A stretch of 33,101 nt of DNA from Acidimicrobiia bacterium (GCA_043782545.1 JAYWAI010000248.1:1-33101), one strand, 5' to 3'; counted from the stretch's first letter, positions 12,535-32,975 are shown. Numbers and translations: made by a program. The notes: generated by a model from the letters alone, not told the origin.

Positions 12535-13065
12535 GTGACTTCTTCGCCGCCGCTGCGCCGTCCAGACAAACCCCAAATGCTGAATCATGTGGCGTACATC
12601 ACCCACGATACGTCGGCCACGGTCGCCTTCTATACCGAGATGCTCGGCATGGAATTGGTAGCGGCCGTGATGGACGACAAGATCCCCTCCACGGGCGATC
12701 CGGTGCCGTATTTTCACTCCTTCTTCAAGATGGCTGATGGCTCGACCGTTGCGTTTTTCGAAGCGCCGTCGCTGCCGCCAGCCTGCGCCGTGACACATCC
12801 GGCTTACAACATTTTTCAGCACATAGCGCTGCAAGTCGCCACTCGGGACACGGTCGACGAGTGGCGCGAATGGTTGGTGGGCAACGGCATCGATGTGATC
12901 GGTCCCGTGAATCACGGCATCATTTACAGCATCTATTTCTACGACCCCAACGGCATCCGCTTGGAACTCACCACCGCATTAGATCCAACTTGGAACAGCC
13001 AACCCGAAGCGGCGCGTGCCTCCCTGGCCGAGTGGGAACTATCCAAGGCGACCAACCGTGGATGA
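12535..13065 (+). CDS. VOC-family protein (glyoxalase / extradiol-dioxygenase fold)
   Basis: 176 aa. LNHVAYITHDTSATVAFYTEMLGMELV and QHIALQV..IYFYDPNGIRLEL are typical VOC beta-alpha-beta-beta-beta modules. Confidence 0.8.
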   Translation: MTSSPPLRRPDKPQMLNHVAYITHDTSATVAFYTEMLGMELVAAVMDDKIPSTGDPVPYFHSFFKMADGSTVAFFEAPSLPPACAVTHPAYNIFQHIALQVATRDTVDEWREWLVGNGIDVIGPVNHGIIYSIYFYDPNGIRLELTTALDPTWNSQPEAARASLAEWELSKATNRG

Positions 13066-14260: not shown

Positions 14261-15429
14261 TGGAGTTGGCGTTCACCAAAGCGGAAAACGAATTCCGCGA
14301 TGAAGTGCGCACGTGGCTGGGGGCGAATTCTCCCAAGGGTCATCGGCCGCGCTCGCTACCGGAAATGCGCGAGTTCGATTTGGCATGGCAGCGCTTGCAG
14401 TTTGATGCTGGCTGGGCGGGCATTGCCTGGCCAACTGAGTACGGAGGCGCTGGCCTGTCGTTGATACAGCAACTCATTTGGTTCGAGGAATACGCGCACA
14501 CCGGGTTGCAGCCCATCGATTCCCGATTCGTGGGGCTCAGCCATGCCGGCCCCACGCTGATGGCCCGGGCTACTGCCGAGCAGCAGACCAAACACCTTGC
14601 TGAAATTTTGCGCGGCGATGTGGTGTGGTGCCAAGGATTTTCTGAGCCTGAGGCGGGCAGCGACCTCGCCAGTTTGCGCACGACGGCGGTTGTCGATGGT
14701 GATCAGTTGGTGATCAACGGGCAGAAGATTTGGACGAGCTTTGCCCCCATTGCCGAGTGGCAAGAACTTCTCGTGCGCACCGACCCAGACGTGCCCAAAC
14801 ACAAGGGACTCACCTGGGTTATTTGTGACATGCACTCGCCCGGCATAGATGCCCGCCCGATTCGCACAATCGACGGCGGTACGGAGTTCGCCGAGGTGTT
14901 TTACGACGATGTGCGAGTGCCGCTGGCCAACGTGGTGGGCGGCATCAACAACGGCTGGAGCGTGGCCATGTCGACCCTGTCATTCGAACGCGGTACGGCA
15001 TTCACGGTGAGCCAAATGCAGTTGTCTTCCAATGTGGAACGGCTCATCGAGATCGCACGCTCACGGATGTCGTTCAACGGGAAGCCGGCGATTGCCGACG
15101 AGTCACTGGCGAAACGGCTTGCTGCAGTGCGTGCGGAAGTGGCGGCGTTGCGGGCACTGACCTACCTCAGTATCTCGGCGAACCTGCACCGCGCCGAGCC
15201 TGGGCCAGAAGGCTCGATGCTGAAGTTGCAGATGGGTGACCTCACCAAACAGGTCTACCAATTGTCGCTGGAAATTCTCGGGCCGCGCTCGCTGAATCGG
15301 CCAGAAAACGAAGACGACAGCTATTGGGTGGATCGCCACTTGGAAGCGTTTTCGTTAACGATTGGCGGCGGTACGTCGGAGATTCAGCGCAACATCATTG
15401 CCGAAAAAGTGTTGGGGTTACCGCGATGA
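14260..15429 (+). CDS. Acyl-CoA dehydrogenase, large subunit of a probable heteromeric FadE pair
   Basis: 389 aa. Contains CQGFSEPEAGSDLASL, GQKIWTS and GGGTSEIQRNIIAE. The GTG start shares 1 nt with the upstream stop codon. Confidence 0.9.
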   Translation: MELAFTKAENEFRDEVRTWLGANSPKGHRPRSLPEMREFDLAWQRLQFDAGWAGIAWPTEYGGAGLSLIQQLIWFEEYAHTGLQPIDSRFVGLSHAGPTLMARATAEQQTKHLAEILRGDVVWCQGFSEPEAGSDLASLRTTAVVDGDQLVINGQKIWTSFAPIAEWQELLVRTDPDVPKHKGLTWVICDMHSPGIDARPIRTIDGGTEFAEVFYDDVRVPLANVVGGINNGWSVAMSTLSFERGTAFTVSQMQLSSNVERLIEIARSRMSFNGKPAIADESLAKRLAAVRAEVAALRALTYLSISANLHRAEPGPEGSMLKLQMGDLTKQVYQLSLEILGPRSLNRPENEDDSYWVDRHLEAFSLTIGGGTSEIQRNIIAEKVLGLPR

Positions 15430-16451
15430 ATCTGCTGCCATCAGATGAACAGACCGGGATCGTTGAAGCGTCTCGAGCGTTCTTGAGCGGTCAATTGCCA
15501 ATCGCCCGTACCCGCGAAATGTTTGGCGAGTCGAGCAATATTGACGCCGGGGCGTGGTCTGAGGCGGCCGAGTTGGGCTGGTTTGGCCTCGGGCTGCCCG
15601 AGCGTTTTGGCGGCGTGGGTTGCGGCCTGGCCGATGAGGCATTGCTGTTTCGCGAAATAGGCCGATCGCTGGCGTCTGGGCCATTTCTTTCAACCGTCGT
15701 CGCCGCTCGTGTGGCGGCATTCGCCGGGCACGCTGACCTTGCCGAAGCCATCGTGAGCGGGCAACCCGTTGGTTTCGTGGTCGCCGAATCTCACGGCACC
15801 GTGTCGCCTGACGGTGTACTCAACGGGCCGTTGCAACTTGTCGATGCATCGGGCGATCTTGCTGTTGTCGTGACGCCCACCATCGCGGCGTTGATCGATG
15901 TAACACAACTCCACGACGTGGAGGTGGTGGAAAGCGTGGATCCCGCGGTGCGTCTCCATAGGGCTCTGGCCCATAACGTGATTCCTGGTGCGGTAGTCGC
16001 CGTCAGCATTGACCCTGTGGCCCAACGAGCCATGGTGTTAGCCGCGGCGATGCTCAACGGTATTACAGAAGCGAGTCGCGACATCGGCGCAGAACACGCC
16101 AAAGTACGCGTCCAATTTGGCAAACCGATCGGAGTCAATCAGGCCATCAAACACCCCTGTGCCGACATGGCCGTGAAGGCCCAACTGGCGTACGCGCAAA
16201 CGATATTCGCCGCCGCGTCGCTCGATGAGCAGCGCAGCGATAGCGAGTTTCATGCCACCGGCGCGCTGCTCGTGAGCGCCTCGGCCGCCGAATTTTCTAC
16301 CGCTGCCGCCTTACAAATATTGGGCGGCATGGGTTTCACGTTCGAGCACGACATTCACCTCTACGTGAAGCGGACGCACCTTTTGACCCGTTTATTTCAC
16401 GGCACGAGTCATCAACTTGGCCGGCTCATCGACCTGCCCTTGGCCGAGTAG
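15426..16451 (+). CDS. Acyl-CoA dehydrogenase-family protein, small partner subunit
   Basis: 341 aa from ATG 15426 (ATGA overlap with the upstream ACAD). C-terminal ACAD helices: FGKPIGVNQAIKH and ILGGMGFTFEHDIHLYVKR. Confidence 0.85.
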   Translation: MNLLPSDEQTGIVEASRAFLSGQLPIARTREMFGESSNIDAGAWSEAAELGWFGLGLPERFGGVGCGLADEALLFREIGRSLASGPFLSTVVAARVAAFAGHADLAEAIVSGQPVGFVVAESHGTVSPDGVLNGPLQLVDASGDLAVVVTPTIAALIDVTQLHDVEVVESVDPAVRLHRALAHNVIPGAVVAVSIDPVAQRAMVLAAAMLNGITEASRDIGAEHAKVRVQFGKPIGVNQAIKHPCADMAVKAQLAYAQTIFAAASLDEQRSDSEFHATGALLVSASAAEFSTAAALQILGGMGFTFEHDIHLYVKRTHLLTRLFHGTSHQLGRLIDLPLAE

Positions 16452-20547: not shown

Positions 20548-21363
20548 CTAGTGCACTAAGAAGCCGGCATCGACGGGCAACGCAACGCCCGTGATGTAGC
20601 GAGCTTGTTCTGACACCAAAAACTCCACGGCGTCTGAAATATCTTCGGGTTGCAAGATTTGCACCGGTAGCGCATTTTGCATTGCCGACAACGCAGGGTC
20701 GTTCGCGGCCATCATGGCGGCCATAGCTTCGTTCATAACCATGCCGGTGGCTACGCCAGTCGGGTGGATCGAATTGACCCGAATGCTGTGCTTGGCCAAC
20801 TCTCCAGCGTATTGCTTCATGAGGCCGACCAGTGCGTGCTTGGATGCCGTGTAGGCCTGCGAACCGGCGTTGGAACTGGCTGGAGGCTTGAGCCCAGCGG
20901 TCGAACTGGTGATGATGATCGAGCCGCCGCGCCCGCCGTCGATCAAGGTGGGGATGGCAATTTGACACGTGTTCCACACCCCGGTGAGGTTGGTGGCAAT
21001 GATGTCGAGCCATTCATTGACAGGGTCTGGGCCCGGTGCCAGTCGCACGATGCCAGCATTGGCGATCACGATGTCACACCGTCCAAATACGTCAACCCCA
21101 GCCTTGAACGCGGCGGCGACAGCGGCGTGATCGCGCACGTCGGCCCGGGTCGCCACAATTCGGCCGCCCAGCGCCTCGACTAAGTCGACCGTTTCGGCCA
21201 TGTCGGCGAGCGAGGCGTTGGGATAGTCCATCGACGCAATATCAGCGCAAATGTCGAGCCCGATGATGTGCGCCCCTTGGCTAGCCAGACGCACCGCGTG
21301 CGATCGTCCTTGGCCGCGGGCCACCCCGGTGATGAATGCGACTTTTCCGTCCAGTGTTCCCAT
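20548..21363 (-). CDS. SDR, mycofactocin-coupled / carveol-dehydrogenase-like subfamily (second paralog)
   Basis: 271 aa from ATG 21363 (AGGAG overlaps the upstream stop codon). Contains LDGKVAFITGVARGQGRSHAVRLASQGAHIIGLDICADIASMDYPNASLADMAETV..DVRD and YTASK. Confidence 0.8.
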   Translation of the reverse strand: MGTLDGKVAFITGVARGQGRSHAVRLASQGAHIIGLDICADIASMDYPNASLADMAETVDLVEALGGRIVATRADVRDHAAVAAAFKAGVDVFGRCDIVIANAGIVRLAPGPDPVNEWLDIIATNLTGVWNTCQIAIPTLIDGGRGGSIIITSSTAGLKPPASSNAGSQAYTASKHALVGLMKQYAGELAKHSIRVNSIHPTGVATGMVMNEAMAAMMAANDPALSAMQNALPVQILQPEDISDAVEFLVSEQARYITGVALPVDAGFLVH

Positions 21364-21370
21364 GATGCTC

Positions 21371-22288
21371 CTAGTTGAGTGTGAGGCCCGCGGCGCGTGT
21401 GCCGAAGACCTGTGTTGCCATGACATTGCCGAGCGTGATGGCGTCCCAACGTTTGCCGCCATTGCTGATGATCTTGTCTTCTGTCCAGCCGCCCATCAGG
21501 AAGATCTTTTCGCCCATGGCCCGGATGACTTGACCGCTGACATGCCCAGCTTCTGGGCTGGCCAACCATGCCACTACAGGGCAACACAACGACGGATCCA
21601 TTGGGTCGAATTCGTCAACCGGAATTTCATCGGGCTCGCGAATAGATGCGCCGGTGAGGCCAGCTGAAATTCGAGTAATGCCACCCGGCCCAATGCAATT
21701 GGCGGTGACGCCGAGGCGAGCCAGTTCCAGATTGAGGGTGAGCGTCATGCCCACGATGGCTGCTTTGGCGGTGCCGTAATTGGTCTGGCCAAAGTTGCCC
21801 AGCAACCCCGCTCCGGACGTCGTGTTGATGATGCGCCCGTACGCGATACCTCCGGCCCCTTTGGCGGCATCGCGCCAATGTTGCGCAGCTGCCCTCGAGG
21901 TGAGCCATGTGCCGCGGACGTGCACGTTCATCACGAGATCAAAATCTTGCACAGTCATATTCCAGATCACTCGGTCGCGCACGATGCCGGCGTTGTTGAC
22001 CAAAATGTCCAGACGCCCGTACTCGTCGATGGCCTGTTGCACCATGGCGTTGGCGTCAGTCTCGTCTGCCACATTGCCGTAGTTGGCGCTGGCAATTCCG
22101 CCGCGTTCCTGAATGATTCCTACAACGACGTCAGCGTCTCGGCCCGCTCCCTCGCCGCTCACGTTGGAGCCCAAATCGTTGACGATGACGGTGGCCCCAT
22201 GCTTGGCGAGCTCGAGAGCGTGGCCGCGTCCAATGCCGTGACCGGCTCCAGTAACGAGGGCGATTTTTCCGTCCAGTAGTTTGGGCAT
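21371..22288 (-). CDS. SDR, Hsd4A / MFE-2 N-terminal-domain-like 3-hydroxyacyl-CoA dehydrogenase
   Basis: 305 aa from ATG 22288. Contains LDGKIALVTGAGHGIGRGHALELAKHGATVIVNDLGSNVSGEG, NNAGI and YGTAKAA, with a C-terminal extension typical of this group. Confidence 0.8.
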   Translation of the reverse strand: MPKLLDGKIALVTGAGHGIGRGHALELAKHGATVIVNDLGSNVSGEGAGRDADVVVGIIQERGGIASANYGNVADETDANAMVQQAIDEYGRLDILVNNAGIVRDRVIWNMTVQDFDLVMNVHVRGTWLTSRAAAQHWRDAAKGAGGIAYGRIINTTSGAGLLGNFGQTNYGTAKAAIVGMTLTLNLELARLGVTANCIGPGGITRISAGLTGASIREPDEIPVDEFDPMDPSLCCPVVAWLASPEAGHVSGQVIRAMGEKIFLMGGWTEDKIISNGGKRWDAITLGNVMATQVFGTRAAGLTLN

Positions 22289-22294
22289 ATCGAT

Positions 22295-22308
22295 TGACAC
22301 TAGCGTCA
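22295..22308. promoter_or_regulatory. Candidate operator TGACAC-TA-GCGTCA (1 mismatch)
   Basis: Lies in the 42-bp divergent spacer between the Hsd4A-like SDR (-) and the first crotonase (+). The right flank GA extends the symmetry. Confidence 0.45.
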
Positions 22309-22330
22309 GAAGCTCGATCGAGGGAGAGTC

Positions 22331-23134
22331 GTGACGGATACTGCAAATCAATCAAGTGGCATCGCGGTGCACCACGACGACGGGATTACAAAGGTCACAT
22401 TGGCACGGCCGCAGCGGCGCAACGCCATCGACGTTGACACGGCCCGTGAGCTCACTGCCCTGTTGTTCAACGCCAATACCGATAGTGGCATTCGGGCCAT
22501 CGTGGTCACCGGCACCGATCGTGATTTTTGCACCGGTGCCGACGCCGTGAGTGACCCCAACGCGCCGCGGCCCACCACGCTGGATTACCGTTACGCCACA
22601 GAGGATTACCGCCGATTGTTTCAAGCACTCTGGGAAGTAGAAAAGCCAGTGGTGAGCGCGGTCAACGGCACTGTTGCCGGTGCGGGGTGGATGTTGGCGT
22701 TGCTGGCCGACCTTGTGGTGGCCCGTGAAGATGCCCGATGGACGCATGTGTTTAATCGTCGCGGCATGGTGCCCCACGCTGGCGATCCCTATTTCTTGGC
22801 GCGCATTATTCCCTTCCATCGTCTCAACGAAATAGCCATGTTGGGCGATTCCGTGACGTCGAAAGACCTCTACGAGTGGGGCATAGTCAACCGATGCGTG
22901 ACCGATGGTGAGGTGATGCCAACTGCAATGGATTTGGCCCGGCGGCTAGCGCAAGGTCCCACCCGCACGCTTGGTCTCACCAAGCGCCTATATCGTCGAT
23001 CGCTGACCAGCGATATGGCCACCGCGTTCGAAGATGAGCGCAATGCCACTGCGTTGATCTCGACAACTGCGGATCGTCTCGAAGGCGTGCAGTCATTCGT
23101 AGACGGTCGTCCACCGAATTTTATTGGCAACTGA
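22331..23134 (+). CDS. Enoyl-CoA hydratase/isomerase family protein
   Basis: 267 aa. Contains ITKVTLARPQRRNA, GTDRDFCTGAD and AVNGTVAGAGW. GTG start with GAGGGAGAG upstream. Confidence 0.9.
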   Translation: MTDTANQSSGIAVHHDDGITKVTLARPQRRNAIDVDTARELTALLFNANTDSGIRAIVVTGTDRDFCTGADAVSDPNAPRPTTLDYRYATEDYRRLFQALWEVEKPVVSAVNGTVAGAGWMLALLADLVVAREDARWTHVFNRRGMVPHAGDPYFLARIIPFHRLNEIAMLGDSVTSKDLYEWGIVNRCVTDGEVMPTAMDLARRLAQGPTRTLGLTKRLYRRSLTSDMATAFEDERNATALISTTADRLEGVQSFVDGRPPNFIGN

Positions 23135-23144
23135 AAGGCCGAAT

Positions 23145-23888
23145 ATGTCCGTACAATCTCAAGTAACTGACGGCGTGTTGATCATCACGCTCGATCGCCC
23201 AGAAGCGGGAAACTCGCTGAATCCCGAGGTCGGGAGCGGCATCGTGGGCGCTATGACACAGGCCGAAGCGGATCCCGATATTCGCGTGATTGTGGTGACC
23301 GGTGCCGGTGAGAAAATCTTCTGCGCCGGCATGGATCTCAAGGCATTCGCCGCCGGCGAGGACATGGCGCCGGTTGGCAAAGCTCTCAACATGTTGAGAG
23401 CAAGCAAGAAGCCAATCATTGCGGCCGTAAATGGCGCTGCAGTGGCTGGCGGCTTCGAAGTCGTGATGACGTGCGACCTCGTGGTGGCCGTCGAACATGC
23501 CAAATTCGGCATTCCGGAAGTGAAACGCGGTTTAGTGGCCGCTGGTGGCGGCACACGCTTGCCCACTCGTATCCCATTACAAGTGGCCCTGGAAATGGGG
23601 CTCACCGGCGATCCGATTTCGGCCGCTCGGGCGCTCGGATTAGGACTCATTAATCGTGTGGTGCCGGCCGCTGATTTGATGGCCGCCGCGCTCGAGTTGG
23701 CGGGGCGAATCACCGCTAACGGTCCGCTTGCCGTGCAGGCAACCAAACAGCTGATGCTTGAAGAGATGGGCGCTGATATTTCGGCCCACGTGCTCGAGGT
23801 GACACGACATGTATTCGCCAGTCACGATGCCATCGAGGGCGCCACGGCGTTCGCCCAAAAGCGCCCACCGGTGTGGACGGGTAGCTAA
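23145..23888 (+). CDS. Enoyl-CoA hydratase (crotonase)
   Basis: 247 aa from ATG 23145 (GAAAGG RBS). Contains VLIITLDRPEAGNSL, GAGEKIFCAGMDLK, AAVNGAAVAGGFE and FGIPEVKRGL. Confidence 0.9.
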   Translation: MSVQSQVTDGVLIITLDRPEAGNSLNPEVGSGIVGAMTQAEADPDIRVIVVTGAGEKIFCAGMDLKAFAAGEDMAPVGKALNMLRASKKPIIAAVNGAAVAGGFEVVMTCDLVVAVEHAKFGIPEVKRGLVAAGGGTRLPTRIPLQVALEMGLTGDPISAARALGLGLINRVVPAADLMAAALELAGRITANGPLAVQATKQLMLEEMGADISAHVLEVTRHVFASHDAIEGATAFAQKRPPVWTGS

Positions 23889-25018
23889 CGCGTCAGCAAC
23901 ATCGCGCCGGAGAATGGCCCCACCGCGTTGGCCCACACGGCCACCTCGGCGTTGTCGACCTGTCGATCGCCACACTGCCCCCGCAATTGGCGCGTTGCTT
24001 CGATGCAAAAATTGGCGCCATGACGACGCCCCACATTGATCGCTCCACCGTCGGTGTTCGTCGGCATCGCACCTCCTAAACGCGTATTGCCTTCGGCAAT
24101 AAACGGCCCGGCCTGCCCCGGCGGACACAGGCCGAGTGCTTCGAGCCATTGAAACGTGATGATCGAAAACCCGTCGTACAGATGAGCACAATCAACGTCG
24201 GCTGGTTTCAGATCAGTACGCGACCACAACACCTCGGCACAGTGCGCGGGGGATGTGTGCACCATGTCGGGCAAGATCTCAAAATTCATGTCATGAATCG
24301 CCGAGAGTGCCGATGCCTCGATAAACACTTCTGGTTGTTTGAGATCTCGTGCCCGCTCCTCAGTCGTGAAAATCACCGCGGAGCCAGAGTCGCACGGGTA
24401 GTCACAATCCAGTATCCGTAATGGTTTTGTGATGTATGGCTGCGCCAAGAAGTCGGCTTTGCTCAGCGGTCCGCGCATGAGCGCATTGTCGTTCAAGCGG
24501 GCGTACTCACGCTGCACCTCGGCGAACGCAGCAAAGTGCTCTTCGGTCGCATCAGATTCGTGCATGTAGCGATTCATGAGCAATCCAGCCCATTGGGTCG
24601 GGCTGAAATCGCCGAACGGATATTGGAATTGTGTATCGCCGGGGCTCGGTGAGCCGAGCATCGCGCCACCAGCAGCCAAAGCAGCGCTTGAAGGTTGTTG
24701 CATCATCAAACGAAACGACATGCACACTTCGCTATGGCCCGTGGCCACTGCTTGCGCGGCGTGATACGCCGGTGTGATGAACGCGGGGGACGTACCCACG
24801 TTGAGATTCCACTGGAGTTTGTTGAAGCCCAACATCCAGGCAAAGTCGGTGGCGTCACCACCCCAGGTGCTCACTCCGTCGATGTCGCTGGCCTTGAGAC
24901 CGGCGTCGTCGAGAGCGGCGACGGCCGCTTGGGCGGCGTGCATGCGTTCACTCATACCCGAATTTCGGGCCACTTGGGAATAGCCAACGCCGACGATAGC
25001 AACACGACGATTTTTCAC
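23885..25018 (-). CDS. Thiolase-superfamily protein, SCP-x/Ltp type
   Basis: 377 aa. Contains MKNRRVAIVGVGYSQVAR and NTDGGAINVGRRHG. GTGA overlap with the upstream DUF35 gene. No Cys is visible at the expected nucleophile position. Confidence 0.85.
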   Translation of the reverse strand: MKNRRVAIVGVGYSQVARNSGMSERMHAAQAAVAALDDAGLKASDIDGVSTWGGDATDFAWMLGFNKLQWNLNVGTSPAFITPAYHAAQAVATGHSEVCMSFRLMMQQPSSAALAAGGAMLGSPSPGDTQFQYPFGDFSPTQWAGLLMNRYMHESDATEEHFAAFAEVQREYARLNDNALMRGPLSKADFLAQPYITKPLRILDCDYPCDSGSAVIFTTEERARDLKQPEVFIEASALSAIHDMNFEILPDMVHTSPAHCAEVLWSRTDLKPADVDCAHLYDGFSIITFQWLEALGLCPPGQAGPFIAEGNTRLGGAMPTNTDGGAINVGRRHGANFCIEATRQLRGQCGDRQVDNAEVAVWANAVGPFSGAMLLTR

Positions 25019-25437
25019 TTCGACACCGGCCGAAAAACAGGAATCGTGATTTCATCTGAGAGCATTTCGAAGTCGACTTCGAGCGCCATGCCAATGCGGG
25101 CATCTGACTCAGAAACGCCAACCAAGTTGGACAAGAAGTGCAATTGCGGTTGTTCAATTAGTGCGACGGTGGCCAACAAGTACGGCACCCGGTCGACGAA
25201 GTAAGGGTGAAACGCTTTGTGCGTTTCGGTAAATGAATACAGCGTTGCCCGTCCGGAAACTTGCTCGAAGGCCAGGTCGAAACCTTGGCAATTGCGGCAA
25301 ACGGGTCGCGGCAGATGGATATACGTGCCGCATGCCTGGCAACGCAAAATGCGAAGCTGGCGTTGCCGGGTACCTTCCCAAAATGGCTCGGTGAACGGCT
25401 CGATAACTATTGGCGGAGGAGCGACATTTTGACTCAT
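25015..25437 (-). CDS. DUF35 OB-fold / Zn-ribbon protein (thiolase partner)
   Basis: 140 aa. Contains FWEGTRQRQLRILRCQACGTYIHLPRPVCRNC (Cys4 ribbon) followed by an OB-fold tail. The ATG overlaps the TetR stop codon (ATGA). Confidence 0.85.
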   Translation of the reverse strand: MSQNVAPPPIVIEPFTEPFWEGTRQRQLRILRCQACGTYIHLPRPVCRNCQGFDLAFEQVSGRATLYSFTETHKAFHPYFVDRVPYLLATVALIEQPQLHFLSNLVGVSESDARIGMALEVDFEMLSDEITIPVFRPVSK

Positions 25438-26786
25438 GTGGCGACAATGACCCTTTCAATGAACGTTGCTTGCATTTCGATAATCGCCGGGACGGTGGGC
25501 TCATATTTGCTGCCGCGCCCTTCGTTCGGTACATGCTCAAGTAGCGCGGAGAGCATCAAGCCCGCTGCCCGGCGATCCAGTGCGTAGGCCCGGCTTTGGC
25601 CGAAGAGTGAGCGCACTGCGGCGCCGATCCCAATCACGGTATCTCGGCACGCAGAGAGGGTTTGCGGGTCGTTGGGATAGCCCTCCGTCCACGAACGCAA
25701 CACCCCGGCATATCGTTCTTGCAATACGATGAAACCGTTGAGCCACGCGCGGAGGGCCGCTGGGTCGTTGGTAGAGGCAGCGACGCCGAGCTGTTGGAAT
25801 GGCGGCGTCATGGCGAGGGCACAATCGTGGGCGAGGTATCGCAACAGGTCGAGTTTGTCAGTGAAATAGCGGTAGTAGGTACCTCGTGCCACACCGGCCT
25901 TTTTCACAATGGCGTCGATGCTGGCGCCATCGAATCCGGAGTCGGCAAATACCGCACTACCGGCGTCGAGCAGATTTCGCATTGTTTGATGGGCCTGGTC
26001 ACTCAGGTCGAATCGGCCAGTCAGAGGCTCGATGTCTGTTCGAGCCGCCAAGTGCGCCAGTGGTCCCATGGCGTCGGGGCTTGGTGATGGGGCCACTCGA
26101 TGCTGACGACCCAGGGCTGACTGCGGCCCGGCTCGCAAGAACTCGTGAGGCGTATCGGGGAAAAGAAAAAGCTGCAAGGCAGTAGCGATGTTGTCGACGA
26201 GTTGCGTGTTGGTGAGGCCGGGTCGATAGACATGGTTGATGTAGTGGTACCGATTGAGGAGACCTAGCACGACGATCGCCGCGGTGTGTTGATCGCGAAC
26301 GGGGTAGCCAGCGGCAGCGAGGGATTCGCCAAACTGCTCGGCGTGTCTGTCGACGTAGCTGGTAACCCGTGGGCGCAGCGGAGCCTTGGGGGACGCCACG
26401 TTGGCCCACTCGACGAACAAGGTGGCATACCGTTCAAACACCCAATTCCACTCGCCGAGCCACCAATGCAAATTGTCGAAGCCTTCGGGTGTCGGACCGA
26501 TTGCACCGAGGCGACGGGTGACCCGCATTAGCGCATCGCCGGCCTCATCCATGAGCTCGATGAAGATCGCTTGTTTGCTCTCGAAATATTGATACAGCGT
26601 GGCGCGCGAAACATCGGCTGCCGTGGCGATGTCATCGACAGACGTGGTGTGAAAACCGATCTTGGCAAAGCAGCCCAAAGCCGATTCGACGATCTGTTGT
26701 CGGGTCTGGGCACCTCGTTCGCCGATGGTAGGACTCGTAGGTCCGTAGCTGTTTCGCCGTTCGAATGCGTCGGATTTTGCCTTCAA
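25434..26786 (-). CDS. Tandem-duplicated (double) TetR-family transcriptional regulator
   Basis: About 450 aa with two complete TetR modules. HTH 1 is QQIVESALGCFAKIGFHTTSVDDIATAADVSRATLYQYFESK. HTH 2 is RNLLDAGSAVFADSGFDGASIDAIVKKAGVARGTYYRYFTDK. My preferred start is TTG 26786, with GGAGGG 3 nt upstream. The 598-aa track ORF runs antisense through the neighbouring DUF35 gene. Confidence 0.8.
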   Translation of the reverse strand: MKAKSDAFERRNSYGPTSPTIGERGAQTRQQIVESALGCFAKIGFHTTSVDDIATAADVSRATLYQYFESKQAIFIELMDEAGDALMRVTRRLGAIGPTPEGFDNLHWWLGEWNWVFERYATLFVEWANVASPKAPLRPRVTSYVDRHAEQFGESLAAAGYPVRDQHTAAIVVLGLLNRYHYINHVYRPGLTNTQLVDNIATALQLFLFPDTPHEFLRAGPQSALGRQHRVAPSPSPDAMGPLAHLAARTDIEPLTGRFDLSDQAHQTMRNLLDAGSAVFADSGFDGASIDAIVKKAGVARGTYYRYFTDKLDLLRYLAHDCALAMTPPFQQLGVAASTNDPAALRAWLNGFIVLQERYAGVLRSWTEGYPNDPQTLSACRDTVIGIGAAVRSLFGQSRAYALDRRAAGLMLSALLEHVPNEGRGSKYEPTVPAIIEMQATFIERVIVAT

Positions 26787-26815
26787 CGACCCTCCGATCC
26801 TCTCGATTGCGCGTG

Positions 26816-26829
26816 TGACGTTAGTGTCA
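26816..26829. promoter_or_regulatory. Candidate operator TGACGT-TA-GTGTCA (2 mismatches, right half perfect)
   Basis: Lies in the 78-bp divergent spacer between the double-TetR operon (-) and the DUF35-thiolase operon (+). The right flank GA extends the symmetry. Confidence 0.4.
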
Positions 26830-26864
26830 GAATAGACCACTGCTCCACGATCAGGGAAGGCAAC

Positions 26865-27290
26865 ATGCCGTTTCAACCATTGCCCACGATTACTGATGAC
26901 ACCGCGCCGTTTTGGGAAGGTGGTGCCGTCGGCGAATTGCGCATCAACCGATGCCGATCCTGCCGCACCTGGTTTCACCCGCCGGCGCCGGTATGCCCTG
27001 AATGTCTGACTATGGACGTGGGCCCAGAAGTGGCCAGCGGTCGTGCCACAGTGGCAGCCTTCACCGTCAATATGCAGCAATGGTCGCTCGACATGGTGGT
27101 GCCCTTCGTGTTGGCCATCGTGGACCTCGACGATCAACCAGGTGTCCGGTTGATGACGCGCATGGTCGACTGCGCTGCTGACGACATGCATGTTGGGTTG
27201 CCGGTCGAGGTCACATTTCAGGCGGCCCAAGACATGTGGTTGCCGTTGTTTCGGCCCTGCTCGGGCAATGACTCGGCGGTGTCGGTATGA
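26865..27290 (+). CDS. DUF35 OB-fold / Zn-ribbon protein (thiolase partner)
   Basis: 141 aa from ATG 26865 (AGGGAAGG RBS). Contains FWEGGAVGELRINRCRSCRTWFHPPAPVCPEC followed by an OB-fold tail. Confidence 0.85.
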   Translation: MPFQPLPTITDDTAPFWEGGAVGELRINRCRSCRTWFHPPAPVCPECLTMDVGPEVASGRATVAAFTVNMQQWSLDMVVPFVLAIVDLDDQPGVRLMTRMVDCAADDMHVGLPVEVTFQAAQDMWLPLFRPCSGNDSAVSV

Positions 27291-28474
27291 CCCCCAGAAT
27301 TGGCGAACGCGACACCCTCATTTCGGGAATTGGGCAGTCGGCGATCGGCCGAAAGTTGGGTCGCACGGGTCTGTCGCTCACGGTGGAAGCGTGTTTGGCG
27401 GCGATAGCCGACGCTGGCTTATCGCGCGACGATATCGACGGCGTGTCGAGCTACCCCGGAGCCATGGACGCCTCGCCTGGCATGTCGCCAACGGGCGTGC
27501 ATGAGCTCAAAGACGCGCTTCGATTGCCGGTGAATTGGTTCTGCGGTGGCGCCGAAACGCCGGGGCAGTTGGGCGCGGTATTTAACGCCATTGCCGCGGT
27601 GTCGGCCGGGCTGGCGAACCATGTGTTGGTATTTCGCACGGTTACCGAATCCAGCGCTCAGACCGCCAGCCGCCGTGCCAGTGTGGTGGGCGGTGGCGGC
27701 CGAGTGGGTGGTGTCATGCAATGGATGGTGCCGTTTCACGCGGTGAGCGCGTCGAACTGGGTGGGGATGTACACCCAGCGCTACATGCACGACTACGGCC
27801 TGACCCGAGAGCAACTCGCCCAAATTCCGCTCAACGCCCGCCGGCACGCGGCGCTCAATCCGAACGCCATTTTCCGGGACCCGCTCACTCTTGATGACTA
27901 CATGAACGCCCGCATGATTTCGTGGCCGTTGTGCCTCTTCGACTGTGACATTCCGTGTGACGGCTCGTCGGCTCTGATCATCTCGCGTTCTGATGCTCGT
28001 GCTGACCTGCGCAAAGTCGTTGATATTGAGGCGATTGGTTCGGCCCTCCATGGTCGAGACTCGTGGGACCAGCGCGCCGATCTCACCGAAATGGCCAGTC
28101 ACGACGCCGCTGGCATGATGTGGTCACGTACCGACCTCAAACCCGCTGATGTCGATTCGGCGCATCTCTATGACGGGTTTTCTTACCTCAATTTGCAGTG
28201 GCTCGAAGCTTTGAATTTCTTTCGCAAGGGCGAGGCCGGCGGGTTTCTGGAGGGCGGCGAAAGTCGGATTGGGCTCGGCGGCGAGTTGCCGATGAACACC
28301 AACGGCGGCCAGCTTTCTGGGGGCCGTTTGCACGGGTATGGCTACCTGCACGAGGCATGTGTGCAGCTGCGCGGCGAGGCAACCGGCCGTCAGGTCGCAA
28401 ACGCGCAAGTGTCGGTAGTGGCCGCCGGTGGAGGTCCACTCGGCGGTTGTTTGCTGCTGACGAGCGGGCGCTAG
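27287..28474 (+). CDS. Thiolase-superfamily protein, SCP-x/Ltp type
   Basis: 395 aa. ATGA overlap with the DUF35 gene. Contains NTNGGQLSGGRLHG. A Cys is present in NWFCGGAETPG, but it is not in the usual register. Confidence 0.85.
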   Translation: MTPRIGERDTLISGIGQSAIGRKLGRTGLSLTVEACLAAIADAGLSRDDIDGVSSYPGAMDASPGMSPTGVHELKDALRLPVNWFCGGAETPGQLGAVFNAIAAVSAGLANHVLVFRTVTESSAQTASRRASVVGGGGRVGGVMQWMVPFHAVSASNWVGMYTQRYMHDYGLTREQLAQIPLNARRHAALNPNAIFRDPLTLDDYMNARMISWPLCLFDCDIPCDGSSALIISRSDARADLRKVVDIEAIGSALHGRDSWDQRADLTEMASHDAAGMMWSRTDLKPADVDSAHLYDGFSYLNLQWLEALNFFRKGEAGGFLEGGESRIGLGGELPMNTNGGQLSGGRLHGYGYLHEACVQLRGEATGRQVANAQVSVVAAGGGPLGGCLLLTSGR

Positions 28475-28512
28475 CCCCTCGCCCCTCGCTAGCCCAACGC
28501 TAGCCCAACGCT
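28470..28512. repeat. Micro-tandem repeats carrying three CTAG motifs in a convergent spacer
   Basis: The 7-mer gcccctc occurs twice (28474-28487). The 11-mer gctagcccaac occurs twice (28488-28509), plus a partial third copy. gctagccc occurs at 28470, 28488 and 28499. The stop codons of both convergent genes lie in these units. Confidence 0.7.
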
Positions 28513-29708
28513 CCGGCTTCTCGCACGGCAGTGATTTCGTCCCAATCGAATCCGGCATCCATCAGGATCGCTTCGGTGTCCTGACCCAGCTCCGGCGCGG
28601 GGCCTGCAGGAGTGGTGTGTACCCCGTCGAATTGCATGGGCGCCGCCACTAAGCGGAATTCGAGGCCGTCGTTTCCAGTCACCAAGGGTAGAAAACCATT
28701 GGGGGCCATTTGTACATGATCATGAACTTCCTTCACGTCAATGACCGGTGCCCAAACTCCGCTGAAACCATCGAACCGTTTTTTCCATTCCTCCAACGTG
28801 GCACTGCCAAAAATGTCGTCCATGACTCGAACGCATTCGGCACGGTTGACATATCGCGCTTGTGCGTTGTCGAATCGCGGGTCGGCAATGAGATCGGGGC
28901 GTTGCATGACGCCGCACAATTCACCCCAGAAACGGTCGGCCTGCAGGAGCACTAAATACAGCCAGCGTTCGTCGGACGTTTTGTACCAATTGGTCAGCGG
29001 GTTACCCGGCTCCTCCCGTGAGGTCGTCATGCTCTGCGCCAAATAGGGGGCGCTCACGATGTCGCACGCCATCGACCACATGCCGACGTTGAGAAGCGAC
29101 ACGTCCACGATCGATGGTTCGCCGGTGTTGGCCCGCTTGAACAACGCCATGGCGATCGCTCCCGCAATGGTGTTGCCACCTTGGAGGTCATAGAACGCCG
29201 GTGGTTGCGGGGGAGGGGTCTTGGTCGGTGATTGGTTGGCGAGCCGATTGGCAAACCCCGAGGAGGCCCATGCCGCGGCCAAGTCGTAGCCGCCCACATT
29301 TTTCATAGGGCCTTGGCTGCCCCAACCGCTCCCGCACACAAAGATGATGTTGGGATTGGCCTGTCGGATCACGTCAATGTCGATATTCAGTTTCTGGCGA
29401 GTCTCGGGCAGGTAGCTCGTGAGGAAAACGTCGCTCACCGCGGCGATCTTCAAGAGTGTCTCGCGCCCCGCTGGAATGCTCAGATTCAGTGTGATGCTGC
29501 GCTTGCCCCGGTTGGGAATTTCGTTAAACGGGTTCGGGCCCGCACTCTCGAAATTCAACATGTTCTTCAAGCCACGCTGAGGGTCGCCCGTTGGGGGCTC
29601 TACTTTAATGACATCAGCGCCGAGGTCGGCCAAGATGGCCCCTGCCGCGGGCACAAACGTCCAGGCGGCAACTTCGAGAACACGTACACCTGCAAGTGGT
29701 TTGGTCAT
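28500..29708 (-). CDS. Family III CoA-transferase (CaiB/BaiF; same fold as alpha-methylacyl-CoA racemase)
   Basis: MTKPLAGVRVLEVAAWTFVPAAGAILADLGADVIKVEPPTGDPQRG is the hallmark N-terminus. I prefer ATG 29708 over 29723, which lies inside the palindrome. Confidence 0.9.
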   Translation of the reverse strand: MTKPLAGVRVLEVAAWTFVPAAGAILADLGADVIKVEPPTGDPQRGLKNMLNFESAGPNPFNEIPNRGKRSITLNLSIPAGRETLLKIAAVSDVFLTSYLPETRQKLNIDIDVIRQANPNIIFVCGSGWGSQGPMKNVGGYDLAAAWASSGFANRLANQSPTKTPPPQPPAFYDLQGGNTIAGAIAMALFKRANTGEPSIVDVSLLNVGMWSMACDIVSAPYLAQSMTTSREEPGNPLTNWYKTSDERWLYLVLLQADRFWGELCGVMQRPDLIADPRFDNAQARYVNRAECVRVMDDIFGSATLEEWKKRFDGFSGVWAPVIDVKEVHDHVQMAPNGFLPLVTGNDGLEFRLVAAPMQFDGVHTTPAGPAPELGQDTEAILMDAGFDWDEITAVREAGALG

Positions 29709-29717
29709 ATGCAATTC

Positions 29718-29731
29718 TGACATATGTGTCA
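29718..29731. promoter_or_regulatory. Candidate operator TGACAT-AT-GTGTCA (1 mismatch)
   Basis: Lies in the divergent spacer between the CoA-transferase (-) and the isochorismatase-like pair (+). The left flank TC extends the symmetry. Confidence 0.5.
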
Positions 29732-29776
29732 GCTATGGTGGCGATTCGACCGGGAGGGACATTTGCCGTGGAGAAA

Positions 29777-30409
29777 ATGCCGAAAACCATTCGAGGACTC
29801 GAGGCGGGCAAACGTCCGGCGCTGGTGATTAGCGAGTGCCAGCGCGGCATTTTGGACCCTGCGCTCACCACGATTGGCGGCCTCGCTGCGCAAGCTGCGG
29901 AGCGAAACATGTTCGTGCATATTGCGCGCCTGGCTGACGCGTTTCGGGGCGCGAATCTACCGGTTGTTCATGCGCATATTGGGTTCCTGCCGGGCTACGC
30001 GGGTGCGGCATTGACGAGCCCCATGATGGGCATGTCGCGCCGCAACAACAAGCTGATGTTGGGCTCGCCCGATGCCGAACCAATGCCGGGTGTCGAACCG
30101 CAGCCCGGCGATTTCGTGTCGCTTCGCCACTCTGGCCTGGTGATGTGGGAAGGCACCCACATCGATTCGACTTTGCGAAATTGCGGCGTCGATACGATCG
30201 TGTTTACCGGCGTGTCCACCAACTTGGCGTTGTTTGGCGGCACGCTCGGTGCAGTGGAGCGGGGGTATTACGCGGTGATCCCCGAGGATGCCACCTCAGG
30301 CGCATCAGCAGAATCGCATCAATGGATGCTGCAAAATTCGTTAAATTTGTTGGCCTGGATCTCGTCCGTCGACGCCGTCATCGATGCCATTTCGCGGTTG
30401 TCAACATGA
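29777..30409 (+). CDS. Isochorismatase-family (cysteine-hydrolase fold) protein
   Basis: 210 aa from ATG 29777 (GGAG 4 nt upstream). Contains PALVISECQRGI and IVFTGVSTNLALFGG. ATG 29735 is an alternative start. Confidence 0.7.
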   Translation: MPKTIRGLEAGKRPALVISECQRGILDPALTTIGGLAAQAAERNMFVHIARLADAFRGANLPVVHAHIGFLPGYAGAALTSPMMGMSRRNNKLMLGSPDAEPMPGVEPQPGDFVSLRHSGLVMWEGTHIDSTLRNCGVDTIVFTGVSTNLALFGGTLGAVERGYYAVIPEDATSGASAESHQWMLQNSLNLLAWISSVDAVIDAISRLST

Positions 30410-31059
30410 GTACGCCAAGCGATCGGTTTCGCCAAATCGTTGATCCGTCGCACACCGCCGTGGTAACCATGGAGCTGCAACGGGGCATCGTGGGCGACCA
30501 GGCCGTGTTGCCGGCATTGCCCGTAGCGGTGCGTGAAGCGGGCATGCTCGAGATCGCGGGACGTGTGTGCCGGGCGGCGCGAATTGTGGGTGCTCGTGTT
30601 GTGCACGCCACCATGGAAGAGCGAGCCGACGGCCTCGGCCAGGCGGTCAACTGCAAGATATTTTCGATTGTGGCCAAGCGCAGGGCCGAGGTCGGGTTTT
30701 CACCCACCGAAATTGGTCAACCAGGGGCCGAACTCGTGGAAGAACTCGACGTGCAGCCAGCCGACGTGAAGGTGGCGCGTATGCACGGCATGACTCCGTT
30801 TACTGGTACGGAACTCGACGCCGTCATTCGCAACATGCGTGTCACCACAATCGTGCTCATGGGCGTCTCGCTCAATCTGGGCATTATCGGAGCGGCACTC
30901 AGTGCGCTTGATTTGGGATACCAGGTAGTGGTTGTTCGTGACGCCGTCGTGGGTTTGCCCAAGGCATATGCGGACGCGGTGCTCGAAAATTCGATCGCCA
31001 TGATTGCTACGGTTGTGACCGCCGATGAGTTGATCGCCGCATGGGGCGAGTCTTTGTAG
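30406..31059 (+). CDS. Isochorismatase-family protein (paralog of the preceding gene)
   Basis: 217 aa from ATG 30406 (ATGA overlap). Contains TAVVTMELQRGI and IVLMGVSLNLGIIGA. Confidence 0.75.
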   Translation: MSTPSDRFRQIVDPSHTAVVTMELQRGIVGDQAVLPALPVAVREAGMLEIAGRVCRAARIVGARVVHATMEERADGLGQAVNCKIFSIVAKRRAEVGFSPTEIGQPGAELVEELDVQPADVKVARMHGMTPFTGTELDAVIRNMRVTTIVLMGVSLNLGIIGAALSALDLGYQVVVVRDAVVGLPKAYADAVLENSIAMIATVVTADELIAAWGESL

Positions 31060-32361: not shown

Positions 32362-32751
32362 TTAGAGCAGCAGCTTGGCGGCGCGTGGATGAGCGGCGGC
32401 CATTGCTTTGTCGAAGGTCAAGACTTTGCCCGAAAAATGCCCAGCGAGAGAGATGAGATAGGCATCGGTGACCTGCCGGTGGCCAGTGATGTTTTCCAGA
32501 CCGACTTGCTCGAATCCGATAGCGTCGGGCCAAAATTCGTGTCGACGCGAATCTGTGATTGATGCCAGTGCCGCGAGTGCCTCCTCGTGCCGCACGCCGA
32601 CTCGCAGGCAGTACCTCAGGAGCGATCCTTGCGTGATCGGGCAGGTGGCGAATGGCGTGTCTTTCGCCCACCAGGTCAACATCTTGTGATGGTGTTCGTG
32701 GTCGACAATTGCGAGCGCAATCAACGCGTTTGAATCGAGCAGGGTCACCAT
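32362..32751 (-). CDS. vapC: Type II toxin VapC (PIN-domain ribonuclease)
   Basis: 129 aa. MVTLLDSNALIAL carries the PIN Asp in LLDSN, and TDAYL carries a later acidic residue. It overlaps the upstream antitoxin gene by 7 nt. Confidence 0.85.
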   Translation of the reverse strand: MVTLLDSNALIALAIVDHEHHHKMLTWWAKDTPFATCPITQGSLLRYCLRVGVRHEEALAALASITDSRRHEFWPDAIGFEQVGLENITGHRQVTDAYLISLAGHFSGKVLTFDKAMAAAHPRAAKLLL

Positions 32752-32975
32752 TCGTCCTCCATTGCTGCGACGTCGGCGGAGGTGACCGGACGACCCACGC
32801 GGATTGGCTTGAGGCCTCGTGGGCCGGTGGTAACGACCGGTCGTTGCGGTCCGTTCGCGAGTAGTGATTCCTTCAGGAGATCCGAAGCCAATTGGCTCAT
32901 GGTGGAGTGAAGGTCAATTGCTCGTTTGCGTAGTTCGCGATGTATCTCGGGCGGCAAGTCGATGGTCGTTCGCAT
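32745..32975 (-). CDS. vapB: Type II antitoxin VapB
   Basis: 76 aa. MRTTIDLPPEIHRELRKRAIDLHSTMSQLA is a typical VapB/RHH-like N-terminus. TACCAT lies 6 nt upstream of the ATG. Confidence 0.8.
   Translation of the reverse strand: MRTTIDLPPEIHRELRKRAIDLHSTMSQLASDLLKESLLANGPQRPVVTTGPRGLKPIRVGRPVTSADVAAMEDEW

Follow-up and report, generated by a model that had tools for sequence, protein, structure and literature searches.

Two thiolase-like genes, each next to a gene for a DUF35 protein, flank a fused double TetR regulator in a 33,101-nt stretch of DNA from an Acidimicrobiia bacterium (GCA_043782545.1, JAYWAI010000248.1:1-33101; the whole stretch is called the window here), and the question raised by this locus is which reaction their products, ThlA and ThlB, catalyze. 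The initial annotation, made from the sequence alone, noticed that both proteins may lack the nucleophilic Cys of thiolases, and proposed that the two pairs could be aldolases of the Ltp2 type. To our knowledge, only two DUF35-dependent thiolase-fold aldolases have been characterized, namely Ltp2 (Tyr/Tyr) and Sal (Tyr/Cys), which have different catalytic residues and are both steroid-specific. Judging from their motifs and their position in a distance tree, ThlA and ThlB belong to a widespread, uncharacterized sister clade of the Ltp2 steroid aldolases. Our analysis leans towards each module being a DUF35-dependent non-thiolytic C-C lyase, most likely a retro-aldolase that would act on a β-hydroxyacyl-CoA through a Tyr/Arg/Asp site.

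The catalytic positions were compared in an alignment of ThlA, ThlB, a third thiolase-like product of the window (ThlC), five solved structures, whose sequences were rebuilt from HMMER alignments, and 123 full-length representatives of 50%-identity clusters. Conservation was counted in 119 orthologues each for ThlA and ThlB. At the nucleophile column, which in SCP2/SCP-x-type thiolases (EC 2.3.1.16/2.3.1.176) is the Cys of the CxS/AG loop, at the N-terminus of helix Nα3, the true thiolases (7yvy, and BbsB of 7pxp) have Cys, ThlA has Ser77-Pro and ThlB has Thr91-Pro. The HDCF/HDAF loop, which provides a His and the acid/base position in the true thiolases (i.e., His and an acid/base Cys in the HDCF loop of SCP2-type thiolases, as defined in PMC12329534), reads YDGF in both proteins. 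The His of the G-H-P loop is replaced by Arg331 in ThlA and by Arg347 in ThlB, the latter aligning to both Ltp2 Tyr344 and the thiolase GHP His.

Neither protein presents a conserved substitute for the lost Cys. Of the ThlA orthologues, 100 have Ser and 19 have Ala at the nucleophile column, hence Ser77 is not a conserved nucleophile, and the following Pro78 is invariant. In the ThlB orthologues, the column of Thr91 is Thr in 35, Ser in 29, Val in 17, Leu in 11 and Asn in 10, while Pro92 is Pro in 115 of 119; the HMMER alignment puts the neighboring Glu90, not Thr91, at the Cys column. ThlB also contains Cys86, 4-5 residues upstream of the nucleophile column, a position that is Cys in only 8 of 119 orthologues (Ser in 52, Ala in 40). 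Given that the Cys, the His and Cys of the HDCF loop and the GHP His are all replaced, and that the nucleophile column is variable, all thiolase active-site residues have been lost without a conserved substitute nucleophile. The alignment shows ThlA and ThlB to be proteins that, as predicted from their residues, cannot work via an acyl-Cys intermediate.

These results agree with the initial annotation, whose quoted peptides for the nucleophile segment are correct: the ThlA segment lacks a Cys, having Ser77 where 7yvy and BbsB have Cys, and the Cys of ThlB is present but out of register. A conserved Cys/His/Cys set had been named beforehand as the finding that would speak against the proposal, and no such conservation was found in ThlA or ThlB. 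The C-terminal NT(D/N)GG....H motif, which had been described as retained, is indeed present, but its His lies two residues past the GHP position and corresponds to Ltp2 His346, not to the catalytic GHP His of thiolases, where both proteins have Arg.

Searching the PDB by sequence, the best match for both proteins is 6ok1_A, the Ltp2 of T. curvata (3.5e-56 for ThlA and 3.5e-54 for ThlB), followed by 4U4E, the Pyrococcus thiolase 7YVY and the C. testosteroni Sal aldolase 9MYR. Models built with AlphaFold2, with a predicted local distance difference test (pLDDT) of 90.3 and a predicted template modeling score (pTM) of 0.92 for ThlA, and of 87.1 and 0.90 for ThlB, yielded 6OK1 as the top Foldseek match (TM 0.88 for ThlA and 0.87-0.90 for ThlB), then 4U4E and 9MYR. 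TM values of 0.8-0.9 to many thiolase-fold structures, together with Thiolase_C_1 matches above cutoff, give both the five-layered α-β-α-β-α fold of the thiolase superfamily. DUF35-A, in turn, matches 6ok1_B, i.e., ChsH2(DUF35), at 3.6e-21, 9myr_B of the Sal complex at 5.7e-16, and an archaeal thiolase-complex DUF35 at 3e-5; BbsA is absent among its PDB matches and appears only faintly in NCBIfam (E 2.9e-4).

In TcLtp2, Tyr294 (Y294DHF) is the base, Tyr344 is the acid and His296 is in the oxyanion hole, whereas CtSal has Tyr302 and Cys304 (YDCY), and Gln352 takes the place of Tyr344; in either enzyme, Gly stands at the former nucleophile position (Rolfe et al. 2025, PMC12329534, the Sal paper from which the Ltp2 residue roles are taken here). 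The column of the base Tyr294 is invariant Tyr in our proteins (Tyr281 in ThlA, Tyr295 in ThlB), that of the acid Tyr344 is invariant Arg, and that of Ltp2 His296 and Sal Cys304 is invariant Gly, i.e., the Sal dyad is represented by its Tyr, with Gly in the Cys column. As the base Tyr is kept, the only residue common to both characterized aldolases is retained in ThlA and ThlB.

At the family level, PRK07855 is the NCBIfam model of the Ltp2 family, given that TcLtp2 scores 702 bits against a cutoff of 469. ThlA and ThlB score 255.7 and 258.3 bits, which, together with six other proteins with the same motifs, gives a range of 255-302 bits, and no NCBIfam model reaches its cutoff for any of these eight proteins. 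Hence the Ltp2-type reading of the initial annotation survives in part: the thiolase residues are missing, the Ltp2-DUF35 complex is nearest by sequence and by fold, and the base Tyr is invariant, but ThlA and ThlB, going by their catalytic residues and by the family cutoff, are not of the Ltp2 type in either sense. An Ltp3/Ltp4-type or Sal-type assignment was also rejected, with the other NCBIfam "lipid-transfer protein" models, PRK06059, PRK08256 and PRK07937, some of which may correspond to Ltp3, Ltp4 or Ltp1, reaching only 27-132 bits. Among other relatives of these aldolases, MSMEG_6561 is a Sal homologue, and AedK, by report 43% identical to M. tuberculosis Ltp2, adjoins a MaoC-DUF35 gene.

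The clade itself is recognized by three motifs, since YDGF co-varies with G-R-x-H and D-C-D-x-P across the cluster representatives, and Arg331, Asp206, Gly283 and Pro208 (numbered as in ThlA) occur together in 47 sequences, counted as 50%-identity cluster representatives. The Ltp2-like representatives have YD(H/A/C/N)F with (E)(A/G)YxH and C-C-x-E, those similar to 4U4E have H-P-G, and the true thiolases have Cys...HDAF...GHP. The Asp206 column is an invariant Asp in the clade against a Cys in 81% of the Ltp2-like sequences, and Pro208 is 94% conserved in the clade against a Glu in Ltp2-like proteins. In a 35-sequence alignment of Arg-type proteins (30-58% identity to ThlA), P134, D204, D206, Y281, D282, G283, F284, G330, R331, Q344 and Q353 are invariant, and none of these residues varies in the 119+119 orthologues either. 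A neighbor-joining tree (distance-based, with no support values) groups ThlA and ThlB in a 34-leaf clade that has 33 Arg-type leaves and one exception, which looks truncated, and all 52 Arg-type sequences lie inside the smallest clade that also holds TcLtp2. Five proteins (P0163, P0228, P0237, P0239 and P0240) keep YDGF and the Asp of DCDxP and have Ala for Arg (...EGATQ...); this subgroup may comprise a further active-site variant or inactive members.

The spread of the clade was estimated by scanning one genome per GTDB species with an eight-sequence alignment (A2) and the peptide pattern DVDx[AC]xLYDG. At least 592 relatives were confirmed in species-representative genomes, all at loci annotated as "acetyl-CoA acetyltransferase" or "thiolase family protein". 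The matches listed include Acidimicrobiia, Nanopelagicales, Dehalococcoidia, Binatia, Myxococcota, and Alpha-, Beta- and Gammaproteobacteria, and the clade is also found in the cultured actinomycetes Nocardia nova, Rhodococcus gannanensis, Williamsia limnetica, Mycobacterium scrofulaceum and M. nebraskense. Judging from how its closest homologues are named, the window itself comes from an Acidimicrobiia-type actinobacterium. Gene neighborhoods were counted for 84 clade genes in 80 genome loci sampled from these relatives. A DUF35 open reading frame (ORF) lies directly upstream on the same strand in 72 of the 84 and directly downstream in 4, i.e., in 76 of 84 (~90%) altogether. Natural DUF35-thiolase fusions of ~540-600 aa, with DUF35 N-terminal, also exist (P0133, P0152, P0187, P0201 and P0320); most are ThlB-like (53-66% identical), and P0201 is Ltp2-like with Tyr. 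These fusions support a physical complex between DUF35 and the thiolase-fold protein.

Under the retro-aldol reading, each module would be a two-subunit enzyme, composed of a thiolase-fold catalytic protein and a DUF35 protein made by translational coupling. DUF35 would bind the thiolase-fold dimer and help to shape or stabilize the substrate cleft, by analogy with Ltp2-ChsH2(DUF35) and Sal-Shy(DUF35). The substrate would be a bulky or branched β-hydroxyacyl-CoA from the neighboring hydratases, with the conserved Tyr of YDGF acting as a base on the β-hydroxyl, as in Ltp2 and Sal. In thiolases, the position of the GHP His forms an oxyanion hole for the acetyl-CoA enolate; the Arg at this position would stabilize the acyl-CoA enolate, in the room left by the change of His/Cys to Gly. 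The co-varying Asp206, or a water molecule, would then relay the proton, although Asp206 may instead position the Arg. In an ungapped register, Asp206 may fall, with low confidence, on the Ser that lines the pantetheine immediately ahead of the DGAAA strand in classical thiolases. Retro-aldol chemistry is reasonable by analogy, yet it is not demonstrated by the residues. That ThlA and ThlB embody a third, undescribed catalytic solution of the DUF35-dependent C-C lyases, with a Tyr base, an Arg where thiolases had their His, and an Asp that evolved along with it, cleaving bulky or branched β-hydroxyacyl-CoAs, is a tentative proposal that we regard as quite possible, short of probable.

Several observations weigh against this reading. 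Neither of the known catalytic acids (Ltp2 Tyr344 and Sal Cys304) is present and the oxyanion-hole His296 of Ltp2 is Gly, hence the known aldolase mechanism cannot simply be transferred. Arg331, Asp206 and Tyr281 would lie close together judging only from covariation and the loop topology of thiolases. Tyr190, despite its 98% conservation in the clade, is not essential, given that it is Phe in ThlA and in 27 of the 119 ThlA orthologues. The hydratases adjoining the pairs in the window are of the crotonase type, whereas the partner of Ltp2 and Sal is a MaoC hydratase, and the Arg/Asp pair would suit other chemistries equally well, e.g., carboxylate binding or decarboxylation. Finally, a full-text literature search, incomplete in its coverage, found neither a paper describing the clade nor an assayed member of it.

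Four other explanations were weighed. The proteins might be working thiolases with an alternative nucleophile, namely Ser77 of ThlA, Cys86 of ThlB or Cys205 of DCDxP, as both carry a hydroxyl residue at the nucleophile column and Cys205 is ~96% conserved; this is extremely unlikely. Ser77 and Thr91 are rejected as substitutes because many orthologues carry Ala, Val, Leu or Asn at this column, which clade-wide is G/A/V/S/T and others, and Cys86 is rejected as a shifted nucleophile because of its poor retention among the ThlB orthologues. Cys205 is also rejected, being just as frequent in Ltp2-like proteins, 4u4e-like proteins and BbsB, i.e., a general SCP2-type feature. Moreover, both proteins lack the His and Cys that would partner a thiolase nucleophile. 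Only slightly better placed, and still very unlikely, is the view that they are genuine Ltp2 orthologues, i.e., steroid C17 side-chain aldolases cleaving 17-hydroxy-3-oxo-4-pregnene-20-carboxyl-CoA. Ltp2 is their top PDB and fold match, the best match of DUF35-A is ChsH2(DUF35), and related loci hold MaoC hydratase pairs, heteromeric acyl-CoA dehydrogenases (ACADs) and KshA-like oxygenases. However, the PRK07855 scores fall far below both the cutoff and TcLtp2, identity to TcLtp2 is only 31-33%, Tyr344 and His296 have become Arg and Gly, DUF35 is free-standing instead of fused to a MaoC hydratase, and there are no MaoC or ring-degradation genes among the Pfam-scanned ORFs of the window.

More serious, although still unlikely in our estimate, is another CoA-ester chemistry on the thiolase scaffold, such as decarboxylation of a carboxylated acyl-CoA, retro-Claisen or hydrolytic cleavage, a Claisen/aldol condensation that forms no covalent intermediate, or isomerization, in which the Arg would bind a substrate carboxylate or an enolate. 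Such a function would fit the loss of both known aldolase acids and the invariance of the new Arg/Asp pair, the presence of amidohydrolase_2 genes near 41 of the 80 clade loci (a family that includes decarboxylases and C-C hydrolases), and the weak malonyl-CoA decarboxylase activity of TbSLP, a Cys-less relative (PMC12329534). Against it stand the invariance of the base Tyr common to both characterized aldolases, the fact that both subunits are most closely related to aldolase complexes, and the adjacent hydratases, which would supply β-hydroxyacyl-CoAs. The proteins could also be catalytically inert, i.e., scaffolds, lipid- or acyl-CoA-binding "lipid-transfer" proteins, or pseudoenzyme subunits that organize pathway enzymes. 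They lack every canonical thiolase residue as well as the two known aldolase acids, relatives are annotated in databases as lipid-transfer proteins, and steroid-type catabolism is described as rich in heteromeric enzymes with inert partner subunits. Yet Tyr281, Asp282, Arg331, Asp206 and His333, all at catalytic-loop positions, are invariant across clusters less than 50% identical from many phyla, and such invariance of polar residues is typical of an active site, not of a scaffold; we consider inertness improbable.

The layout of the locus supports the view of two coupled pairs. The ORF listing and the Pfam matches yield the order ThlA <- DUF35-A <- double TetR, then DUF35-B -> ThlB, bearing out the mirror-image arrangement proposed initially; the coordinates of these and other features are presented in Table 1. 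The start/stop overlaps, of which the initial annotation had listed those within the two pairs, were read directly in the sequence: ATGA between the TetR stop and the DUF35-A start, GTGA between the DUF35-A stop and the ThlA start, and ATGA between the DUF35-B stop and the ThlB start. They indicate that TetR, DUF35-A and ThlA form a single translationally coupled operon and that DUF35-B and ThlB form a divergent one.

Table 1. Features of the window, with positions counted from its first nucleotide.
Feature	Position	Strand	Remarks
ThlA	23885-25018	(-)	377 aa; Pfam Thiolase_C_1 at 1.2e-33; Cys-less thiolase-fold protein, YDGF/GRxH clade
ThlA Ser77-Pro78	24785-24790	(-)	Thiolase nucleophile column
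ThlA D204-C-D206-Y-P208	24395-24409	(-)	DCDxP
ThlA Y281-D-G-F	24167-24178	(-)	Equivalent to Ltp2 Y294DHF, Sal Y302DCY and SCP2-thiolase HDCF; invariant in 119 orthologues and in the clade alignment
ThlA G330-R331-R-H333	24020-24031	(-)	Arg331 at the column of Ltp2 Tyr344 and the thiolase GHP His; Gly-Arg invariant
DUF35-A	25015-25437	(-)	140 aa; Cys4 zinc ribbon and OB fold; Pfam zf-ChsH2 and OB_ChsH2_C
Fused double TetR regulator	25434-26786	(-)	~450 aa; two TetR_N helix-turn-helix domains; start inferred
Divergent spacer	26787-26864		78 bp, from TetR start to DUF35-B start; regulatory role presumed
DUF35-B	26865-27290	(+)	141 aa; Cys4 zinc ribbon and OB fold; zf-ChsH2 2e-11, OB_ChsH2_C 3.7e-15
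ThlB	27287-28474	(+)	395 aa; Pfam Thiolase_C_1 at 2.9e-32; Cys-less, YDGF/GRxH clade, ThlA paralogue
ThlB C86-G-G-A-E-T91-P92	27542-27562	(+)	Off-register Cys86 and nucleophile-column Thr91
ThlB D219-C-D221-I-P223	27941-27955	(+)	DCDxP; D219, C220, D221 and P223 invariant in 119 orthologues; I222 at a variable position
ThlB Y295-D-G-F	28169-28180	(+)	Invariant in 119 orthologues
ThlB G346-R347-L-H349	28322-28333	(+)	GRxH; G346, R347 and H349 invariant in 119 orthologues; L348 at a variable position
DNA inverted repeat	24138-24231 and 28116-28209		94 nt, 77%
DNA inverted repeat	25372-25393 and 26900-26921		22 nt, 91%
ThlC	144-1286	(-)	Third Cys-less thiolase-like gene; Gly at nucleophile column, YDAF, H-P-G loop
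Amidohydrolase_2 (PF04909)	12983-14260	(+)	
ACAD ORFs	14182-15429 and 15240-16451	(+)	Adjacent; stop-to-stop frames overlap
Mycofactocin-coupled oxidoreductase	20548-21495	(-)	354 bits (NCBIfam cutoff 269)
Isochorismatase-family genes	29696-30409 and 30145-31059	(+)	Tandem; downstream of the CoA-transferase
PIN-domain gene	32362-32913	(-)	Toxin-like; near the right window edge

Both DUF35 proteins show the CxxC...CxxC zinc ribbon when their sequences are read, and both exceed the Pfam gathering cutoffs (23.2 for zf-ChsH2, PF12172, and 27.1 for OB_ChsH2_C, PF01796), DUF35-A with 37.4 and 54.4 bits, and DUF35-B with 43.9 and 56.1 bits, respectively. ThlA and ThlB are 37% identical (E 4e-73), and DUF35-A and DUF35-B are 40% identical (E 3e-31); at these values the two modules are true paralogues, not a chance resemblance. 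The two DNA inverted repeats coincide with the DVD..LYDGFS..WLEALG coding region of ThlA/ThlB and with the PFWEG coding region of the DUF35 genes, and are simply the best-conserved coding segments of the mirrored paralogues. An inversion between the modules is possible in principle at such repeats.

The double TetR ORF extends to 27230, and Pfam TetR_N matches it twice, at about residues 180 and 415. Given that a 57% identical orthologue (429 aa, at locus L002) aligns only from ORF residue 169, and that a GGAGGG Shine-Dalgarno sequence lies 4 nt ahead of a TTG at 26786, this TTG is probably the real start, with a GTG at 26840 as the alternative. The ATG of DUF35-B at 26865 is likewise preceded by a ribosome-binding site, GGGAAGG. 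In the public gene call for the same sequence (L001 3564-5321), the TetR ORF has 585 aa and DUF35-B is omitted, missed because of this over-extension; the true TetR start lies ~135-150 codons inside the called one. Such 5' over-extension may conceal DUF35 genes elsewhere, too.

Orthologues of the double TetR, of 429-474 aa, share the architecture with two TetR_N domains. In L002 and L005-L007, the regulator again sits between A-like and B-like pairs, and in L085/86 it is divergent from DUF35->ThlB alone; it is the conserved companion of the modules. It presumably represses both operons until a pathway intermediate binds. The spacer had been described as operator-bearing, a claim that found no support: no inverted repeat of at least 10 nt (seed 6) was detected in 26650-26900, i.e., no palindromic operator in the 78-bp spacer, and a search of the spacer for a sigma-70-like promoter found none. 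A fused pseudo-dimer could, however, bind an asymmetric operator. The best NCBIfam match of the regulator is the mycofactocin regulator MftR, far under its cutoff. One short-chain dehydrogenase/reductase (SDR) of the window passes the NCBIfam cutoffs for a mycofactocin-coupled oxidoreductase (Table 1), and no mft biosynthesis genes were seen in the window.

According to Pfam scans of its ORFs, the window is a CoA-dependent catabolic island. Three crotonases are present, and two of them end tail-to-tail with ThlA; the crotonases adjacent to the pairs occupy 22331-23134 and 23124-23888. The window also holds several SDRs, including the mycofactocin-coupled one, a nucleoside diphosphate-forming (NDP-forming) acyl-CoA synthetase and a family III CoA-transferase convergent with ThlB, as well as a P450, a luciferase-like monooxygenase, an amidohydrolase_2 and a Liv-type ATP-binding cassette importer. 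No canonical Cys-containing thiolase was found among the 26 window ORFs scanned with Pfam and the five ORFs of the modules, which leaves three thiolase-fold genes and no canonical thiolase. ThlC is 47% identical to 4U4E and just passes PRK06158 (425 vs 421 bits); no DUF35 gene is recognizable in the 143 nt that lie downstream of it up to the window edge, or adjacent to it within the window. One of the two ACAD ORFs resembles the large subunit of pimeloyl-CoA dehydrogenase (PimC-large), and the other is IpdE2-like, without a detectable middle domain, both below cutoffs; the pair looks like a heteromeric α/β ACAD of the steroid or cyclic-substrate kind. The isochorismatase-family and PIN-domain genes have no obvious link to the modules, and Rfam found no structured RNAs across the window. 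Positions 21000-31000, compared with plasmids by megablast, gave no match.

Similar genes recur at related loci, where MaoC hydratase pairs, 4HBT thioesterases, AMP-ligases, ACADs and, occasionally, KshA-like Rieske oxygenases lie nearby. The commonest neighbors among the 80 clade loci are SDRs (45), amidohydrolase_2 (41), ACADs (32) and AMP-ligases (30), followed by crotonases (25), family III CoA-transferases (25) and P450s (17). The amidohydrolase_2 genes near clade members (e.g., in the window, at L003 8002-9285, and at many of L005-L084) are often directly upstream and co-directional, and in the proteobacterial loci L049, L050 and L079 the order is MaoC-ECH-amidohydrolase-Thl, with no DUF35 detected. 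It is possible that amidohydrolase_2 is a functional partner of the clade enzymes. KshA-like genes (Pfam KshA_C) lie near clade members at L003 15911-16903, L038, L043 and L046, their carriers being Acidiferrimicrobium sp. IK, Rhodococcus gannanensis, Pseudomaricurvus hydrocarbonicus and Halioxenophilus aromaticivorans, which hints at steroid-like substrates in some lineages. Taken as a whole, the gene context suggests a bulky, branched or alicyclic acid, possibly steroid- or terpenoid-like, rather than a straight-chain fatty acid.

If the C-C lyase reading is true, the thiolase fold has been turned to non-thiolytic C-C cleavage more than twice, and a third active-site solution would lie in a very widespread, mis-annotated family, whose function and substrate are proposals at this stage. 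It would also correct a common mis-annotation, one that makes Actinobacteria abundant in soil and fresh water seem richer in β-oxidation than they are, indicate a step still missing from the degradation of branched, alicyclic or steroid-like acids, and offer new aldolase scaffolds for biocatalysis. At this locus, two paralogous complexes would be governed by one fused double-TetR switch.

Among known systems, some DUF35-dependent true thiolases and acyltransferases are comparable. BbsAB benzoylsuccinyl-CoA thiolase (7PXP), the archaeal thiolase/3-hydroxy-3-methylglutaryl-CoA (HMG-CoA) synthase/DUF35 complex (6ESQ) and PhlABC (5M3K) share with our modules the SCP2-type thiolase fold and an adjacently encoded zinc-ribbon/OB DUF35, but they keep the nucleophilic Cys and the GHP His, use an acyl-enzyme route, and are only ~20-26% identical. 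TbSLP of Trypanosoma brucei (5AB4-7) has a Cys-less SCP2-type fold and a YDCF loop, and was proposed as an aldolase in a 2025 JBC paper (PMC12329534). Unlike ThlA and ThlB, it has the Sal-type Cys, is eukaryotic, and is without a known DUF35 partner. The PRK06158 group, which includes ThlC and the "putative thiolase" 4U4E of Sphaerobacter thermophilus (second-best PDB match), is also Cys-less, with Gly at the nucleophile column, and has the Tyr of YDxF; it differs in having YD(S/A)F and in keeping a His-Pro-Gly at the GHP position, and ThlA and ThlB score 216-226 bits against its cutoff of 421.

Of the two characterized aldolases, Sal-Shy(DUF35), the bile-acid C5 side-chain aldolase of Comamonas testosteroni (9MYR), likewise combines a Cys-less thiolase fold with a DUF35 partner, its base Tyr302 is conserved in ThlA and ThlB, and its residue at the Ltp2 Tyr344 column is also not Tyr (Gln352). 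Its acid Cys304 is Gly here, however, identity is only 23-26%, and its DUF35, which is part of a fusion with a MaoC hydratase, binds zinc through a Cys3His site. The steroid side-chain aldolase Ltp2-ChsH2(DUF35) (6OK1; M. tuberculosis Rv3540c; PRK07855) has most in common with the modules: a thiolase fold without the nucleophilic Cys, the base Tyr of YDxF, the His two residues after the Tyr344 position, a Cys4 zinc-ribbon/OB partner that is the best PDB match of DUF35-A, and an actinobacterial acyl-CoA catabolic context. It differs from them in family membership, in the Tyr344 and His296 that are Arg and Gly in ThlA and ThlB, and in the CCxE that is DCDxP here. Furthermore, its DUF35 is the C-terminal domain of the MaoC hydratase ChsH2, whereas in the present locus DUF35 is a free-standing, translationally coupled protein, and two paralogous modules flank a double TetR.

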